From: a virus
Lineage: Duplodnaviria; Heunggongvirae; Uroviricota; Caudoviricetes
DNA length: 19,148 bases
Direction: 5' to 3' (one strand)
Virus record (IMG/VR): IMGVR_UViG_2531839179_000028
The notes beneath the pieces were generated by a model, which was not told the DNA's origin, did not search any database, and worked only from the letters and a program-made list of their open reading frames with translations. Shown in pieces: positions 1 to 17,765 of the stretch. Position 1 is the stretch's first letter; each line of letters opens with the position of its first letter. A program made the translations under genes and the position numbers.

Positions 1-90
1 TTGCCTCCCCCCCGTTGATGGGTAAAATAGCCGCAATTTTTCGTTTTCAACAAGCGCGGCGCGATGCCGCTTACTCAAGAAGAAAGAATT

Positions 91-165
91 ATGACGTTGT
101 CTCCTTATTTGCAAGAGGTGGCGAAGCGCCGCACTTTTGCTATTATTTCTCACCCCAATAATTAA
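91..165 (+). pseudogene. prfC: Truncated 5' fragment of the peptide chain release factor 3 gene (prfC'), host side of the prophage junction
   Basis: ATG at 91 translates to [22 protein letters not shown], which matches my recollection of the RF3 N-terminus up to the start of the GTPase P-loop. The frame then diverges to NN-stop at 163-165 and AT-rich phage-like DNA follows. The integrase gene starts 220 bp downstream. Confidence 0.55.
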
Positions 166-319
166 GCCCAATTTAAAGCTCTTTTATTCTTTCAAAATCC
201 TTTCAGTTAATTGAGGTTGAGTCATATAACTCATTTAAATACATTTGGTTATATGGCTTCTTTAATTGAAAATTCTTTCATGTAGCTTTAAATCGATCAG
301 GTTGCTTTCATCAAAAATC

Positions 320-376
320 TGTACATATGCTTGTACATAATGTACAAAGCAGCAGAGGTGTTTTGCGATTTGTACA
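320..376. repeat. Four copies of the palindromic hexamer TGTACA clustered just upstream of the integrase start
   Basis: TGTACA occurs at 320-325, 332-337, 341-346 and 371-376, within 66 bp of the int ATG at 386. GTACA-type half-sites also occur in the operator-like inverted repeats flanking cI. Confidence 0.5.
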
Positions 377-385
377 AGGTGAGTA

Positions 386-1609
386 ATGGCGCTGTCTGAT
401 GCGTGGTTGCGTTCAGTCGTTGGAAAGGAACGTGATAAGGTTTTGGTTAAATCCGATCGTGATGGTCTGTCTGTCAGAGTATCACCGAAAGGTCGCGTAG
501 TGTTCCAATATCGTTATCAATGGGCAGGGAAAGGTGAGCGTCTTGATATCGGAACTTACCCGGCAACTGGATTAAAAGAGGCCAGAGAAGAAGTTATTCG
601 TCTCCGTGGTGAACTTGAGTCAAACCGTAATCCACGATTTGTCAAGCAGGCTGAAAAACGAAAAGCTACTGAAGCCATGACGGTAGAGTCTGTGATCCGT
701 GCCTGGTATGAAGCATATTGTGTAAAAAATAAAAAAGGTTCTGAACAGATACTCCGCTCGTTTGAGCTGCACCTGTTCTCTAAAATCGGGAATATCCCTC
801 ACGATGCAGCTACATTGCATGATTGGTTAGAAGTCCTGGAGCCTCTTAGCACTAAGACTCCAGCAATAGCAGACCGATTGCTAATTAACGCAAAGCAGGC
901 CCATGTCTGGGCGTATAAGAGAAAGCTCATTGAAACTCGCCCGCTGTCGGATATCACGGGTAAAGATATGGATATCCGTAAAGGTCAGAAGAAACGGTTT
1001 CTGACACATGATGAAATTAAAATCCTTTATGCTGCGATCGATGGTTCTCGAATGGTTCCTAAATACCGGGCCTTCATTAAGCTATTGCTGCATTTTGGCT
1101 GCCGTAGTTCAGAGCTAATTACTGCCAGGGTGGACGATTTTGATTTCATTAATAAGGTATGGACTGTACCACCAGAACGACATAAGACTGGGGAGATAAC
1201 AGGCGAACCGCTAAAGAGGCCCATTATTGAACCGGTGGAGGAGCTTATAAAGAACGCTATCTCTATGAACAATGGTTCCGATATGCTTTTTACTAAGGAA
1301 GGAAGCAGGGAACCCGTTGGTCGAACATCATTGCAGTCGCTGCCTTACAATTTAATGCAGTACGCATGGCGGCGTTTGGGGTATCAATTCCCTCATTGGT
1401 CTCTTCATGATTTGAGGCGAACAGCACGAACAAACTTTTCTGATCTTACTGCTCCTCATATTGCAGAAATAATGCTCGGCCATAAACTGCCAGGGGTTTG
1501 GCAGGTTTATGACAAGAGCGATTATCTAGAAGAACAGCGTAAAGCCTACCAGGCGTGGTGGGAGAGGGTTGAATCGATCATTACTTGTGCTAGCTCAGAC
1601 CCCAACTGA
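386..1609 (+). CDS. int: Tyrosine-type site-specific recombinase (phage integrase)
   Basis: 407-aa ORF immediately downstream of the att junction. The C-terminal region carries the catalytic-domain hallmarks HDLRRT, HIAEIMLGH and the tyrosine in VYDKSDY. The basic N-terminus is typical of arm-binding domains in P4-like integrases. Confidence 0.9.
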   Translation: MALSDAWLRSVVGKERDKVLVKSDRDGLSVRVSPKGRVVFQYRYQWAGKGERLDIGTYPATGLKEAREEVIRLRGELESNRNPRFVKQAEKRKATEAMTVESVIRAWYEAYCVKNKKGSEQILRSFELHLFSKIGNIPHDAATLHDWLEVLEPLSTKTPAIADRLLINAKQAHVWAYKRKLIETRPLSDITGKDMDIRKGQKKRFLTHDEIKILYAAIDGSRMVPKYRAFIKLLLHFGCRSSELITARVDDFDFINKVWTVPPERHKTGEITGEPLKRPIIEPVEELIKNAISMNNGSDMLFTKEGSREPVGRTSLQSLPYNLMQYAWRRLGYQFPHWSLHDLRRTARTNFSDLTAPHIAEIMLGHKLPGVWQVYDKSDYLEEQRKAYQAWWERVESIITCASSDPN

Positions 1610-1763
1610 TAGTCTGTTTTGTCGGAATACTTACAATTTCTCATTCAAGTTAGTTAAGTGGTATTTTACAAATGGAGACAATGTAATGTCTGGTCAAAAT
1701 AACAGCGACGAGATTTGCAATTGATTAGTGGCAGGTTTGGTTCTAATAACATAGGAGTTATTG

Positions 1764-2579
1764 ATGCAGAGCGAGATAATCACGCAGAAAAATGGGAAAG
1801 GTATATTTGATCGAAAGGCTTGGTTAACAGAGTCTAAAAAACTGTATTTATCTGCGAAGCTGTTGAGAAGTGAAGGTGAGCGAAACAAAAAATTGCTTCG
1901 GGCAGCAAGTAAGAAATCTCCTATTGTTCATGAATACATCGATATCGCATCGGCAACTGATCAAACTAGCAGACTTATGTTGGGGTATGCTTTTGAAATG
2001 TTGTTAAAGTCAGCGATTCTTCTAATGAATCTCGGTGCGAGAAAAAAAGCTATTGAAAATGAGTTTTGTAATTATGGGCATAAACTTGATTGTATGGCTG
2101 TTGATTTAGGTTTGCCATTAACCGTTGACGAACTGAAGTTATTGAAAGTTGCGTCTCGAGATATAGTTTTAAATGCTCGATATCCTATTGGAATAGTGGA
2201 TGATAATAAATATATAACAGAGTTGAATGAAAGAAATATTCAGTTGGCAGATGAGAATATTTTTAGGGATATGGTCAGTCTGTATGACAAAATAAAAAGT
2301 ATAGTTGCTAAGTTTGATAATGATGTAGCGAATTGTGCAAATTTCAATATGCTTAGATTGAGTGAGTTTACTCTCTTTATGCGGAATGGTGGTGGACTAT
2401 CATCAAGAGCAATAGTTATCTTTTCGGATAAATTTCCAGAAGTCAGTAAACGCAAGTCATATTTAAAAAAAGCTATCGAAGAACATGCAGGCAAAGTGGC
2501 TTTTTTATATACTTACCGCTGGTCTTCGTTTTCATTCTTTGAAGACACAGGTAAAAAACTTATCCCGCTTGTGGAGTAG
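1764..2579 (+). CDS. Hypothetical protein, AT-rich orphan cargo gene in the integrase-proximal accessory slot
   Basis: 271-aa ORF with AGGAG (1754-1758) 5 nt upstream of ATG 1764 (a TTG at 1761 is also in frame). Codon usage is markedly AT-rich compared with the flanking integrase and early-operon genes. It is convergent with the AlpA-like gene, with a hairpin between them. I recognise no domain. Confidence 0.6.
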   Translation: MQSEIITQKNGKGIFDRKAWLTESKKLYLSAKLLRSEGERNKKLLRAASKKSPIVHEYIDIASATDQTSRLMLGYAFEMLLKSAILLMNLGARKKAIENEFCNYGHKLDCMAVDLGLPLTVDELKLLKVASRDIVLNARYPIGIVDDNKYITELNERNIQLADENIFRDMVSLYDKIKSIVAKFDNDVANCANFNMLRLSEFTLFMRNGGGLSSRAIVIFSDKFPEVSKRKSYLKKAIEEHAGKVAFLYTYRWSSFSFFEDTGKKLIPLVE

Positions 2580-6457: not shown

Positions 6458-7132
6458 TTAGGCCTTTATTGTGTATCTTCTTGGTTTTCCCGAGAAAATC
6501 ACTGTACCAATTATAGAGCAATTACCGTTAATCTTAATGTAAGGCTCAGGCCAGTTTGGGTTTAATGCTTTGAGATAACGCTGTGTTCCATCTTCTATCA
6601 ACCGCTTGAAGGTGGTTTCGCCTGAATCGTGCATCAATGCAATAACGTCGTCACCGTGGCAGGCAGGGACTTCAGGATCTACAAAAATCATGTCTCCCGG
6701 GCGGTACTCATCAATCATTGAATCACCAATCACCCGCAAGATATAAGTCATTTCGCCACAGGGTACAGGGCAGGGATAAGTTTCTGCTGTGCTCAAATCA
6801 ACCTCAGAATAGCCAACTTCTTTCCATGCTCCGGCCTGTACCCATGATATGACAGGGACTAACGTTATTTGTTTGTTAGTAATTGAAACATCAGGTTTTT
6901 TTGTGATGTTTGTTGTCTGGTGTTCTTGATCAAGCCATCCGACAGGCAGGTCGAAACATTTTTCGATGTGCCGTGCCATGCTGTCACCGATATTTTTAGT
7001 AGCACCATCTCCCATAAACCTGCTGGTCTGGGTTGGCTCGCGATCAATCATGGTGGCAAAGGAAGAATTCCCGCCAACACCATCTCTCAGTTTTCTGGCG
7101 TTAGACCGCCGGATGTCATGGACTGTTTTCAT
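6458..7132 (-). CDS. cI: CI-like prophage repressor (N-terminal HTH, C-terminal S24 LexA-type autopeptidase)
   Basis: 224 aa. It has an Ala-Gly cleavage site (VQAGAW), the catalytic Ser in VIGDSM and Lys in TFKRL of S24 peptidases, and a basic N-terminal DNA-binding region. It is divergent from the cro-like gene across an operator-containing intergenic region. Confidence 0.85.
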   Translation of the reverse strand: MKTVHDIRRSNARKLRDGVGGNSSFATMIDREPTQTSRFMGDGATKNIGDSMARHIEKCFDLPVGWLDQEHQTTNITKKPDVSITNKQITLVPVISWVQAGAWKEVGYSEVDLSTAETYPCPVPCGEMTYILRVIGDSMIDEYRPGDMIFVDPEVPACHGDDVIALMHDSGETTFKRLIEDGTQRYLKALNPNWPEPYIKINGNCSIIGTVIFSGKPRRYTIKA

Positions 7133-7466: not shown

Positions 7467-8019
7467 GTGGGTAAGCATCACTGGAAAGTAGAAAAACAGC
7501 CTGAGTGGTACGTGAAAGCTGTCAGAAAAACTATCGCGGCGTTGCCGGGGGGGGTACGCTGAAGCTGCTGAGTGGCTAGATGTAACAGAGAACGCTTTAT
7601 TCAACCGCCTTCGTGCAGATGGCGATCAGATTTTCCCGCTGGGATGGGCAATGATTTTACAGCGCGCGGCTGGCACTCACTACATTGCGGATGCTGTCGC
7701 ACAGTCTGCTGGTGGGGTGTTTGTATCGCTTCCTGAAATTGAGGAAGTAGAGAACGCCGATATAAACCAGCGCCTGCTGGAAGTCATCGAACAGATCGGG
7801 AGTTACTCAAAGCAGATTCGTTCGGCAATCGAAGATGGGGTAGTGGAGCCACACGAGCAGACAGCAATTAATGATGAGTTGTATCTGTCAATTTCGAAGC
7901 TCCAGGAGCATGCAGCACTGGTCTACAAAATCTTTTGCGCTCCAGAAAAGAGTGACGCCCGCGAGTGTGCAGCTCCGGGCGTCGTGGCGTTTTGTGTCTG
8001 TGGAGAAACTAACGCATGA
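7467..8019 (+). pseudogene. CII/YdaT-like early regulator interrupted by a frameshift at a G8 homopolymer
   Basis: GTG 7467 (GAGG 6 nt upstream; ATG 7455 in frame) opens a frame that stops at 7560-7562 just after G8 (7547-7554). A second frame is open from 7516 to 8019 with coding-like sequence (…AEAAEWLDVTENALFNRLRADGDQIFPLGW…) and no start codon before ATG 7651. Removing one G joins the two frames into one ~183-aa product. Confidence 0.5.
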
Positions 8020-8852
8020 ACAGTTTAACGGCAAATAACCGTTTGTCGCAACAGCTGGTGGTCAGCGTCGCTGAACACCTGTTGTTACGGCATGAATGCA
8101 GATTACCAAATCTCCTGGCTGTAAGTAACCACAGAGAACTTTACCTGACTGTGGGGGGCGAGTTGTGCAGGAACTTAACCGCTGGTTTCGTGACGGAAGA
8201 GGACTTTATGTTCATGTTATTCGTTGGGAGCCAGAAACACAGCGCGTTATCTATCTTCGCAAAGACTACCCGCATGAGTGCTTTAGTCCTTTGTGGAAAT
8301 TCAAGCGTGATTTTGTTGAGTGTGAAGGACCACCAGCACATTGATTCTGCCATTCCGGGACGTTACACTGTTCAGGCACCTTATAAAGCGGGTGCCGGGA
8401 TTGGCGTCCTGGAATTGATCAAGGCGATATATGACGCGCCAGCGTCTTTTTTATCGTCCGCATTTGCTCACATCAAAGTTATGGTGGGCTGGGCGGGGGC
8501 ATCGAAAGATGCGCCGGTTTCCTTGATCACCGGTTACGCCAACCCCGTTCAGTTCACCACCAGCGAAATTGGCGTTTCCGGTGGTGGAAGTATTTCACCG
8601 ATCAAGGAGGCTGCCATCATGGCTACTGTCCCAGCCCTCACTCGTCTGAATGATGAAGACTTACATAAACTCAGTTATGTAACAACTGCACTACGTGCTC
8701 TGCGCAAGGTAACTCTTTCGGATCCGCAGGCACATCAGGTTCTGGTAGAAACCCTTCTTAACTTGCAAGCTGAACGTATTCGTCTGGCGGATAAGGCTAA
8801 TTTTCATATTCACCGTCTCCTGAATATCAGCGGAGGGCATCGTCATGCTTAA
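8016..8852 (+). CDS. Hypothetical early-right operon protein
   Basis: 278-aa ORF. Its ATG overlaps the upstream stop (ATGA at 8016-8019), implying translational coupling. I recognise no domain. Confidence 0.45.
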   Translation: MNSLTANNRLSQQLVVSVAEHLLLRHECRLPNLLAVSNHRELYLTVGGELCRNLTAGFVTEEDFMFMLFVGSQKHSALSIFAKTTRMSALVLCGNSSVILLSVKDHQHIDSAIPGRYTVQAPYKAGAGIGVLELIKAIYDAPASFLSSAFAHIKVMVGWAGASKDAPVSLITGYANPVQFTTSEIGVSGGGSISPIKEAAIMATVPALTRLNDEDLHKLSYVTTALRALRKVTLSDPQAHQVLVETLLNLQAERIRLADKANFHIHRLLNISGGHRHA

Positions 8853-14551: not shown

Positions 14552-15703
14552 AATAGCTGCGCGGAATAGTAGATCACTTTGAGGGAACTTAGCCCGGATT
14601 GTGCGATCTGATCAATCGCCAAATCAAAACAAATCACCAACCGGACTGAGCAATGCCGATCATAGCACCAATTTCCCGTGACGAACGACGCCTGATGCAG
14701 AAAGCCATCCATAAAACACACGATAAAAATTATGCCCGCAGACTGACTGCCATGCTGATGCTGCACCGGGGCGACCGTGTCAGCGACGTTGCCAGAACGC
14801 TCTGCTGCGCCCGTTCCTCTGTTGGACGCTGGATTAACTGGTTCACGCAGTCGGGTGTTGAGGGACTGAAATCATTACCTGCCGGGCGTGCCCGTCGCTG
14901 GCCGTTTGAGCATATCTGCACACTGTTACGTGAGCTGGTAAAACATTCTCCCGGCGACTTTGGCTACCAGCGTTCACGCTGGAGTACAGAACTGCTGGCA
15001 ATAAAAATCAATGAGATAACCGGTTGCCAGTTAAATGCCGGAACCGTTCGCCGCTGGTTGCCGTCTGCGGGGATTGTGTGGCGAAGGGCTGCGCCAACTC
15101 TGCGTATCCGTGACCCGCATAAAGATGAAAAGATGGCAGCAATCCATAAAGCACTGGACGAATGCAGCGCAGAGCATCCGGTCTTTTATGAAGATGAAGT
15201 GGATATCCATCTTCATCCCAAAATCGGTGCGGACTGGCAACTGCGCGGACAGCAAAAACGGGTGGTCACGCCGGGACAGAATGAAAAATATTATCTGGCC
15301 GGAGCGCTGCACAGCGGGACAGGTAAAGTCAGCTATGTGGGCGGCAACAGCAAAAGTTCGGCGCTGTTCATCAGCCTGCTGAAGCGGCTTAAAGCGACAT
15401 ACCGTCGGGCGAAAACCATCACGCTGATCGTGGACAACTACATTATCCACAAAAGCCGGGAAACACAGAGCTGGCTGAAGGAGAACCCGAAGTTCAGGGT
15501 CATTTATCAGCCGGTTTACTCGCCATGGGTGAATCATGTTGAACGGCTATGGCAGGCACTTCACGACACAATAACGCGTAATCATCAGTGCCGCTCAATG
15601 TGGCAACTGTTGAAAAAGTTCGCCATTTTATGGAAACCGTCAGCCCATTCCCCGGAGGCAAACATGGACTGGCAAAAGTGTAGCGGTATTAAGCGCAGCT
15701 ATT
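14552..15703 (+). mobile_element. IS630-family insertion sequence (1152 bp) with TA target-site duplication at a CTAG target
   Basis: Terminal inverted repeats AATAGCTGCGC… (14552-) and …GCGCAGCTATT (-15703). Flanking TA at 14550-14551 and 15704-15705; removing the element regenerates CTAG, the target I recall for IS630. It carries a single transposase ORF. Confidence 0.8.
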
Positions 15704-15786
15704 TAGGTTATGACTGTAATGAAAAAGGTATTAATAGCAGCGATAGGTTTTTGTTTAGTTGGTTGTGCAGGTATGAAATTACCTGA
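14653..15786 (+). CDS. IS630-family transposase with an apparent 1-nt deletion near the 3' end, causing read-through beyond the IS
   Basis: The ORF matches the IS630 transposase as I recall it through residue ~322. At the A5 run (15613-15617) one extra A would restore a frame ending …LLKKVRHFMETVSPFPGGKHGLAKV-stop at 15681-15683, inside the IS, for 343 aa. As sequenced, the frame runs across the right inverted repeat to 15786. Confidence 0.8.
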   Translation: MPIIAPISRDERRLMQKAIHKTHDKNYARRLTAMLMLHRGDRVSDVARTLCCARSSVGRWINWFTQSGVEGLKSLPAGRARRWPFEHICTLLRELVKHSPGDFGYQRSRWSTELLAIKINEITGCQLNAGTVRRWLPSAGIVWRRAAPTLRIRDPHKDEKMAAIHKALDECSAEHPVFYEDEVDIHLHPKIGADWQLRGQQKRVVTPGQNEKYYLAGALHSGTGKVSYVGGNSKSSALFISLLKRLKATYRRAKTITLIVDNYIIHKSRETQSWLKENPKFRVIYQPVYSPWVNHVERLWQALHDTITRNHQCRSMWQLLKKFAILWKPSAHSPEANMDWQKCSGIKRSYLGYDCNEKGINSSDRFLFSWLCRYEIT

Positions 15787-16712: not shown

Positions 16713-17765
16713 ATGAAAAATACTGTAAAAATAAACAGTGTTGATTTGATCAACGCTGATTGCCTGCATTTTATTCAGTCCCTGCCTGATGATTCCATTG
16801 ACCTGATTGTTACCGATCCGCCTTACTTCAAGGTGAAACCCAACGGTTGGGACAATCAGTGGAAAGGGGATGAAGATTACCTTAAGTGGCTGGACCACTG
16901 TCTGGCCCAGTTCTGGCGGGTGTTAAAACCTGCCGGAAGCCTTTACCTGTTCTGTGGGCATCGCCTGGCATCTGATATTGAGATCATGATGCGTGAACGT
17001 TTCAACGTGCTTAACCATATCATCTGGGCGAAGCCGTCCGGACGTTGGAATGGGTGTAATAAAGAAAGTCTGCGCGCATATTTTCCTGCCACAGAGCGCG
17101 TTCTGTTTGCTGAACATTACCAGGGGCCATATCGCGGCAAAAGTGACGGCTATGCGGCAAAAGAAAGGGCACTCAAACAGCACATAATGGCACCGCTGAT
17201 ATCGTATTTCAGGGATGCTCGTGCCGAACTGGGTATAACGGCAAAACAAATTGCCGAAGCCACAGGTAAGAAAAATATGGTTTCCCACTGGTTTGGTGCC
17301 AGTCAGTGGCAGTTGCCGAATGAGGCTGACTATCGGAAGTTACAGGCACTGTTTTCCCGTATAGCGGCAGAGAAGTTTCAGGAACAACAACTGGAACAAC
17401 CACACCACCAGCTGGTGGCATCTTATGATTCACTGAATCGCAAATATTCTGAATTGCTGGATGAGTTTAAATCTCTCCGGCGCTATTTCTCCGTATCAGT
17501 CTCCGTGCCTTATACCGATGTCTGGATGCATAAACCCGTTCAGTTCTACCCGGGTAAACATCCGTGTGAGAAACCGGCGGATATGCTCAGGCAAATAATC
17601 AATGCCAGTAGTCGACCTGGTGATCTGGTTGCTGATTTTTTTATGGGATCCGGTTCCACAATAAAAGCAGCAATGGCGCTGGGGCGTCGGGCCTTAGGTG
17701 TTGAGCTTGAGTCAGAGCGGTTTAACCAGACAGTGAAAGAGATAAACGAGCTGGTGGGGAAATAA
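16713..17765 (+). CDS. Beta-class DNA amino-methyltransferase (N6-adenine or N4-cytosine), orphan
   Basis: 350 aa with motif IV DPPY (VTDPPYF) near the N-terminus and the AdoMet-binding motif FFMGSGST near the C-terminus, the permuted order typical of beta-class methyltransferases. No adjacent restriction endonuclease gene. Confidence 0.85.
   Translation: MKNTVKINSVDLINADCLHFIQSLPDDSIDLIVTDPPYFKVKPNGWDNQWKGDEDYLKWLDHCLAQFWRVLKPAGSLYLFCGHRLASDIEIMMRERFNVLNHIIWAKPSGRWNGCNKESLRAYFPATERVLFAEHYQGPYRGKSDGYAAKERALKQHIMAPLISYFRDARAELGITAKQIAEATGKKNMVSHWFGASQWQLPNEADYRKLQALFSRIAAEKFQEQQLEQPHHQLVASYDSLNRKYSELLDEFKSLRRYFSVSVSVPYTDVWMHKPVQFYPGKHPCEKPADMLRQIINASSRPGDLVADFFMGSGSTIKAAMALGRRALGVELESERFNQTVKEINELVGK

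Follow-up and report, generated by a model that had tools for sequence, protein, structure and literature searches.

Left attachment junction of a lambdoid Escherichia coli prophage in the 5' end of prfC, and the phage-borne start that rebuilds the release factor 3 gene in related lysogens

What becomes of release factor 3 (RF3) when a phage inserts its genome into the first codons of the gene that encodes it? This question is raised by a 19,148-nt stretch of DNA (IMG/VR record IMGVR_UViG_2531839179_000028, referred to as the window), at the start of which the left end of a lambda-like E. coli prophage joins the interrupted 5' start of the RF3 gene prfC. An initial annotation had described an intergenic region followed by 22 RF3 codons that break off into phage DNA beside an integrase gene, had expected the crossover core near positions 130-156, and had left two possibilities: either the prophage supplies a replacement promoter and 5' end for prfC at its other junction, or the 22-codon fragment is itself a phage-borne copy. 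We examined both junctions by comparing the window with uninterrupted prfC loci, with related complete genomes, and with free phages.

The host part of the left junction (attL) could be delimited to the base. Window positions 1-155 aligned with uninterrupted yjjG-prfC loci at 99.4% identity (E 2e-72), and the alignment broke off at base 155 in each uninterrupted genome sampled, with prfC as the underlying feature. The sole mismatch in this interval, T141 in the window versus C, is synonymous. Positions 1-90 (plus strand) are what is left at attL of the host yjjG-prfC intergenic region; they are identical to the uninterrupted loci and include the native prfC ribosome-binding region. A promoter-like match at bases 1-28 (TTGCCT-16 nt-TAAAAT, with only 9 of 12 consensus matches) now faces int. 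Since the yjjG stop codon ends immediately before position 1, there is no intact prfC upstream. The displaced host 5' end of prfC follows at 91-165 (plus strand) and consists of 22 native codons (91-156), two phage codons and a stop, that is, a 24-codon stub. The first 22 residues of its translation are those of the K-12 RF3 N terminus, and in lysogens this stub is annotated by NCBI PGAP as an incomplete coding sequence lacking a C terminus. Phage DNA starts at 156 with the P' arm of attP, which runs from the core to int (156-385), and is followed by int itself at 386-1609. Alignment to the uninterrupted locus thus bore out the initial annotation in its account of the native spacer and the RF3 codons, in the break into phage DNA beside the integrase, and in the placement of the insertion within the 5' coding region of prfC, here at codons 18-22. 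An uninterrupted prfC immediately upstream of position 1, which would have reduced the fragment to a mere repeat, is not present.

The crossover core was found at 142-155, within the interval anticipated. This 14-bp sequence, ATTATTTCTCACCC, corresponds to prfC codons 18-22 (Ile-Ile-Ser-His-Pro), just 5' of the GTPase P-loop codons. It is the only stretch identical across attB, attL and attR, and it is also present in the attP of the free phages cdtI, 2H10 and Ayreon. Moreover, the same 14 bp are annotated as a "duplication due to insertion" in GenBank records of Stx1a/Stx2c phages. The published 17-bp attP consensus of the SXT/R391 elements, ATcATcTCtCACCCtGA (PMC9058013), overlaps the core and begins at the core's first base. 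When one mismatch (base 141) was allowed, the shared stretch grew to 136-155, TTTGCNATTATTTCTCACCC. Base 141 is T in the window. The host attB, the attL of strain APEC E19025 and the attP of Ayreon have C here, whereas phage attP otherwise has A, as does attR; this variation may reflect plain mutation, or strand exchange may be possible on either side of 141. No second copy of the core and no attR were detected within the 19-kb window, even with 2 mismatches permitted; the core occurs once, indicating that attR is not in the window. A 7-nt inverted repeat around the core in attP, AATTATT/AATAATT (at the equivalents of window 141-147 and 157-163), was weighed as two paired core-type sites. We do not claim it as such, because the repeat is short and rich in A and T, and its right arm has no counterpart in attB.

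The genes and sites expected of an integration module adjoin the junction. The tyrosine integrase encoded by int (386-1609, plus strand) has 407 aa, comprises the Pfam domains Arm-DNA-bind_3, Phage_int_M and Phage_integrase, and is 98% and 97% identical to the Int proteins of phages cdtI and 2H10, respectively. In the integrase alignment, R204, K232, R344, H366 and Y375 were invariant and H341 was nearly invariant; we take these six residues to be the usual tyrosine-recombinase catalytic positions. Just upstream of int, the P' arm holds a cluster of four TGTACA motifs (at 320, 332, 341 and 371; cluster 320-376, plus strand), which accounts for four of the five such hexamers in the 19-kb window. 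The cluster contains the 22-nt sequence TGTACATATGCTTGTACATAAT, of which the P arm at attR has another copy, and both arms of attP carry the 22-nt direct repeat TGTACATATG(A/C)TTGTACATAAT. Judged by their sequence and arrangement, and by the Arm-DNA-bind_3 domain of Int, the TGTACA repeats are candidate arm-type Int-binding sites. An excisionase (recombination directionality factor) of 64 aa is encoded on the minus strand at 2715-2909 (phrog_1553, E 5.9e-35), with weak HTH_17/MerR matches, and its gene is convergent with int. Between the two lies a 272-aa open reading frame (ORF) (1761-2579, plus strand), for which Pfam, PHROGs and NCBIfam gave no significant match and PADLOC gave marginal ones only (best E 0.0012, to a type II restriction-enzyme model). 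Phages cdtI, 2H10 and Ayreon each have another gene in this place, which suggests that the position next to the integrase takes variable cargo.

Folding of the P' arm, as RNA or DNA, predicted a long AT-rich hairpin at 209-267. The RNA fold of 150-390 was stabler than that of shuffled sequence (z -2.84) and showed no GC-rich stem followed by a U run, and no Rfam family was detected in window 1-450. In this model the hairpin could be a protein-bending or protein-binding region of attP rather than an RNA feature.

To describe the other junction, we used two related complete genomes, those of APEC E19025 and of strain 36C_1_fosA3, the latter being the closest relative of the whole window (94% coverage, 99.4% identity). 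In both genomes, a prophage of about 40-44 kb opens with this attL and closes at the core, where prfC is annotated as intact. The order at attR is ...ATGACAAGCCTTTTGGCCGCAGAGGTAGCGAAAAGAAGAACCTTTGCA-ATTATTTCTCACCC-GGATGCCGGTAAG..., and prfC at this junction measures 1587 nt in both genomes versus 1590 nt in K-12. The origin of the new start is apparent from attP of the free phages 2H10, cdtI and Ayreon, which consists, in one contiguous sequence, of a P arm with a prfC-like start (prfC'), the core, and the window's P' arm (156 onward). Directly 5' of the core, the phage attP has its own ATG, a Shine-Dalgarno-like AAGAG and 16 diverged prfC codons. This phage-borne start (ATGACAAGCCTTTTGGCC..., protein MTSLLAAEV...) is unlike the host copy. 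With an ATG and 16 prfC codons of its own in attP, integration thus rebuilds a full-length 528-aa RF3 at attR. Moreover, since the host DNA of window 1-155 continues directly from yjjG and the phage copy differs from it, it is the host 5' end, displaced, that the window contains. We infer that a matching attR is present in the window's own genome.

The phage-borne start is conserved in several respects. Codons 8-16 of phage prfC' (EVAKRRTFA) differ from the host codons at 8 nucleotides in 6 codons, and all of the differences are synonymous, a pattern which, at the level of sequence, argues for selection on RF3 coding capacity. The ATG, the reading frame and the length of the phage-borne 5' end were equal in all five attP/attR copies. 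Over about 225 nt on the upstream side of the core, the P arm hardly varied among the five elements; it differed further upstream, where that of Ayreon is unrelated. Native RF3 N termini in other taxa vary in both sequence and length before a conserved 10-residue end. A swapped N terminus is thus functionally plausible and likely tolerated, and the hybrid RF3 is presumably active.

We then estimated how common this arrangement is. A megablast search with window 1-400 against 5,426 complete E. coli genomes gave matches in 5,425 of them, the same number that contain the 90-nt intergenic region, and in 701 genomes the match ran through the full query, corresponding to attL. An attR query matched 700 of the 5,426 genomes, with prfC under the match. 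The pair of junctions is therefore found in about 13% of complete E. coli genomes (701 attL, 700 attR). In every lysogen listed for the attR query, a sample spread over the ranking, prfC was annotated as intact.

Taken together, the junctions, the core, the attP of free phages, the rebuilt frame in related genomes and the identity of Int and Xis make us confident that window 1-385 is the attL of a lambdoid prophage with the integration module of cdtI, 2H10 and the prfC-type Stx phages, and that RF3 is rebuilt at attR. Int would recombine the phage attP with the host attB at the 14-bp identity, and integration would place the phage ATG and prfC' codons onto the host prfC, giving the 528-aa RF3 at attR. 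The native promoter region, the ribosome-binding site and the first 22 codons would be stranded at attL as a dead 24-codon stub facing int.

Among the other explanations, the one that fares best is that prfC is effectively knocked out in these lysogens, the hybrid frame being present and silent, since the native promoter and ribosome-binding site have been removed, and the loss being tolerated because RF3 is dispensable. In keeping with this idea, the conserved phage arm offers only weak promoter-like matches: a search of the conserved P arm for a strong sigma-70 promoter that could serve the hybrid prfC found none, the best matches reaching 8 of 12 consensus positions. A site with 9 of 12 matches (TCTACA-16 nt-TATTAT) lies about 185 nt upstream of the ATG; it shares bases with a LexA box belonging to a divergent dinI-like gene, and phage Ayreon lacks it. 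Furthermore, transcription and translation of prfC in such lysogens were stated as unknown by Ogura 2007 (PMC2323221), where prfC is absent from the list of essential genes, and Bobay 2013 counted prfC among the genes disrupted by prophages. However, the exclusively synonymous divergence of the phage codons (8 differences in 6 codons) and the retention of the ATG, frame and length of the phage 5' end in all five attP/attR copies speak against a silent gene, as does the annotation of an intact prfC throughout the listed lysogens. Natural variation of the RF3 N terminus likewise suggests that the swap is tolerated, and the mechanistically equivalent SXT element supplies prfC with both a promoter and an N terminus (PMC8409611). 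We thus consider a knock-out unlikely and favor a rebuilt RF3 gene for which the phage arm presumably supplies a working promoter. Given the rebuilt frame, the classification of prfC as "disrupted" by Bobay et al. 2013 is an oversimplification. With regard to the initial annotation, the second core copy to be sought at the other end of the prophage is indeed present at attR of E19025 and 36C_1_fosA3, and a replacement 5' end with an intact prfC frame (1587 nt) was found in these genomes and is carried by free-phage attP; the replacement promoter that it named in the same alternative is represented by weak matches and stands as an inference.

Two regulatory features of the junctions deserve mention. 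At attR of E19025, two LexA-box-like sites (CTGT-N8-ACAG; locus L003, 9982-10031) lie over the promoter of the dinI-like gene, which is divergent from the hybrid prfC; LexA sites were seen in four of the five elements compared, the exception being Ayreon. At attL, the putative host prfC promoter (window 1-28) is followed by the 24-codon stub and then by int, with no recognizable terminator between them. A search for intrinsic terminators between the stub and int found none, the single match (118-132) falling in native prfC coding sequence. The stranded host promoter may thus read into int. In the conserved phage arm, the only -10-like elements overlap the putative Int arm sites (TGTACATATGATTGTACATAAT), and in most elements this arm is located about 150-190 nt downstream of the two LexA boxes. 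It is conceivable, and in our estimation improbable, that RF3 dosage in about 13% of complete E. coli genomes depends on Int occupancy or on the SOS response, and that a host housekeeping promoter influences int expression.

Two further explanations are very improbable. According to the first, which was the second possibility left by the initial annotation, the 22-codon fragment in the window is the phage-borne copy and the host 5' end is at the other junction. Phages of this type do carry a prfC-like 5' end, but that end, as seen in free-phage attP, is a different one (ATGACAAGCCTTTTGGCC..., starting MTSLLAAEV...), and window 1-155 adjoins yjjG and matches uninterrupted loci at 99.4% identity; we thus discarded this possibility. 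The second, a chance rearrangement or the scar of a decayed element in place of site-specific recombination, could appeal to the IS630-family insertion in the prophage as a sign of some decay, but is at odds with a base-precise junction in 701 genomes with a matching attR in 700, with the 14-bp duplication flanking the element, with the circularly permuted attP of three sequenced free phages, and with intact int and xis genes.

We also investigated whether relatives of the integrase occupy the same site. Integrase relatives from Vibrio diabolicus, Pseudomonas and Acidovorax each had a truncated prfC start upstream, with the same conserved end. In a scan of 80 relatives, restricted to one genome per species, a prfC' stub was located upstream of int in 36, from taxa that include Pantoea, Xenorhabdus, Serratia, Pseudomonas, Acinetobacter, Burkholderiaceae, Methylomonas, Rheinheimera and Salinicola. 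The breakpoint was the same in 40 relatives from Gamma- and Betaproteobacteria, and the spacing between stub and int was 196-235 nt, with one locus at 125 nt. Nearly all relatives above about 51% identity had the stub, which was absent from most of those at 50% or less. The 44 of the 80 loci that lacked a stub, at about 50% identity or below, came in many cases from Xenorhabdus, Photorhabdus, Morganella, Enterobacter and Kluyvera, and these relatives presumably target other sites. At the position of the Asp codon, the two element-side bases usually read RA: all 40 junctions had A at +2, and 35 of the 40 had A or G at +1. Many relatives thus share 17 bp with attB, as SXT does. The contig of one relative, a 413-aa integrase, carried a fimbrial usher operon rather than an integrative and conjugative element (ICE). 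On a Rheinheimera metagenome-assembled contig (CAYTIQ010000001.1), two integrase copies 49 kb apart were each preceded by a different prfC' stub, which is consistent with two tandem elements at prfC, the second stub being element-borne.

The remainder of the window has the features of a lambdoid temperate prophage, with a cI-type repressor of the S24-peptidase family, CII, replication genes, Q and a lysis cassette in lambda order. The repressor gene (Peptidase_S24) is located at 6458-7132 and the CII gene (Phage_CP76) at 7651-8019, and the window ends in lysis genes. The collinear annotation of the nearest genome includes an antiterminator, a holin, a lysozyme, and lambda-like head and tail genes. 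Within an Ash-family ORF (8016-8852), Rfam matches to isrK (8376-8452, plus strand, 64 bits) and to C4 antisense RNA (8477-8564, plus strand, 82 bits) were obtained; together they form an antisense immunity module of the P1/P7 type, here within the early region of a lambdoid element. Downstream of Q follow an IS630 transposase, a phrog_4748 protein and a DNA methyltransferase. The IS630-family insertion sequence (1,152 bp, 14552-15703; transposase ORF 14653-15786) separates the Q antiterminator gene from the late/lysis region, is lacking in the otherwise collinear 36C_1_fosA3 prophage, and could affect late transcription. The methyltransferase (350 aa, type II-like; 16713-17765, plus strand; PADLOC MTase_II, E 3e-152) is encoded just upstream of the holin gene, and no restriction-enzyme gene was identified among the neighboring ORFs checked. 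In the 36C_1_fosA3 prophage, the cargo region beside attR contains a gene annotated as a TIR-domain anti-phage reverse transcriptase (locus L008, 42480-44084).

The closest known systems are phages with the same target. According to Asakura et al. 2007, as cited in PMC8138268, phage cdtI (AB285204) targets prfC; the window element shares this target with cdtI, 2H10 and Ayreon, and the near-identical Int with cdtI and 2H10. When attP of cdtI, 2H10 and Ayreon was compared to the E19025 attR arm joined to window 156-400, identity was 95.7-97.9% over 516 nt, a match that covers the phage-borne prfC' start, the 14-bp core and the TGTACA repeats. In contrast, the cargo of these phages is unlike that of the window. 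A different ORF follows int in each phage, the 19 kb of the window contain no cdt genes, and the window prophage differs from all three by the IS630-family insertion downstream of Q. Prophages encoding Stx1a or Stx2c are also located at prfC in STEC O103:H2 and CC119 (Ogura 2007, PMC2323221; PMC10132054; GenBank LC727876-LC727899). They share with this element the P arm (98.9% identity) and the 14-bp duplication annotated in their records, and the prfC site recurs in later STEC surveys. For an Stx1 phage in prfC, a changed RF3 N terminus and the loss of the native ribosome-binding site and promoter were described previously (Ogura 2007, PMC2323221). No stx genes are present downstream of Q within the window.

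SXT/R391 ICEs reportedly use prfC as their attachment site as well (Hochhut & Waldor 1999). Like the window element, they encode a tyrosine integrase and Xis. They are conjugative elements, whereas the window, which encodes a cI-type repressor, Q and a lysis cassette, is part of a lambdoid phage, and the segment of identity is 17 bp in SXT/R391 compared to 14 bp here. The SXT/R391 family is defined by nearly identical Int proteins and a conserved conjugative backbone. We found no transfer genes in the window or its relatives, which carry lambdoid phage genes instead, and none of the best 120 Int relatives (49-98% identity), a minority of which were named, had SXT, R391 or Vibrio cholerae among its source names. 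The only names that cluster look-ups of the integrase relatives yielded were Pantoea and Pseudomonas. The element is thus not assigned to the SXT/R391 family and works like SXT at the integration step only. The Int proteins of the cdtI phage and of SXT were placed in one prfC-targeting cluster (Smyshlyaev et al. 2021, PMC8138268), and it is through this cluster and the published 17-bp attP consensus that the Int of the window is linked to SXT. Several features of a prfC-5'-end-specific tyrosine-integrase module of the cdtI-phage/SXT cluster were observed: arm-binding and catalytic domains, insertion at the Ile-Ile-Ser-His-Pro codons of prfC, a replacement prfC start (in free-phage attP and in the two related complete genomes), and an Int related to published members, with 98% identity to that of cdtI. 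A similar strategy is known from dusA-specific elements (IMEVchUSA3; PMC8409611), which likewise insert in the 5' end of a housekeeping gene and bring a promoter and a diverged N terminus, the new promoter having been demonstrated with lacZ fusions (PMC8409611). These differ from the window element in their target gene and in being mobilizable islands rather than phages.

The attachment site and the mechanism are thus already known, and this mode of integration is well documented rather than unusual. Attachment at prfC has been on record since 1999 in the case of SXT/R391 and since 2007 in that of Stx and Cdt phages, and earlier work also reported that such elements replace the 5' end of the gene, so that the locus carries little weight as a discovery. 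Its implications concern annotation and the host. The 24-codon stub at attL is a junction scar and not a gene, and prfC in these lysogens should be regarded as rebuilt rather than disrupted, against the counting of some surveys. About 1 in 8 complete E. coli genomes would accordingly have an RF3 with a phage-encoded N terminus, made under expression signals that the phage presumably supplies.
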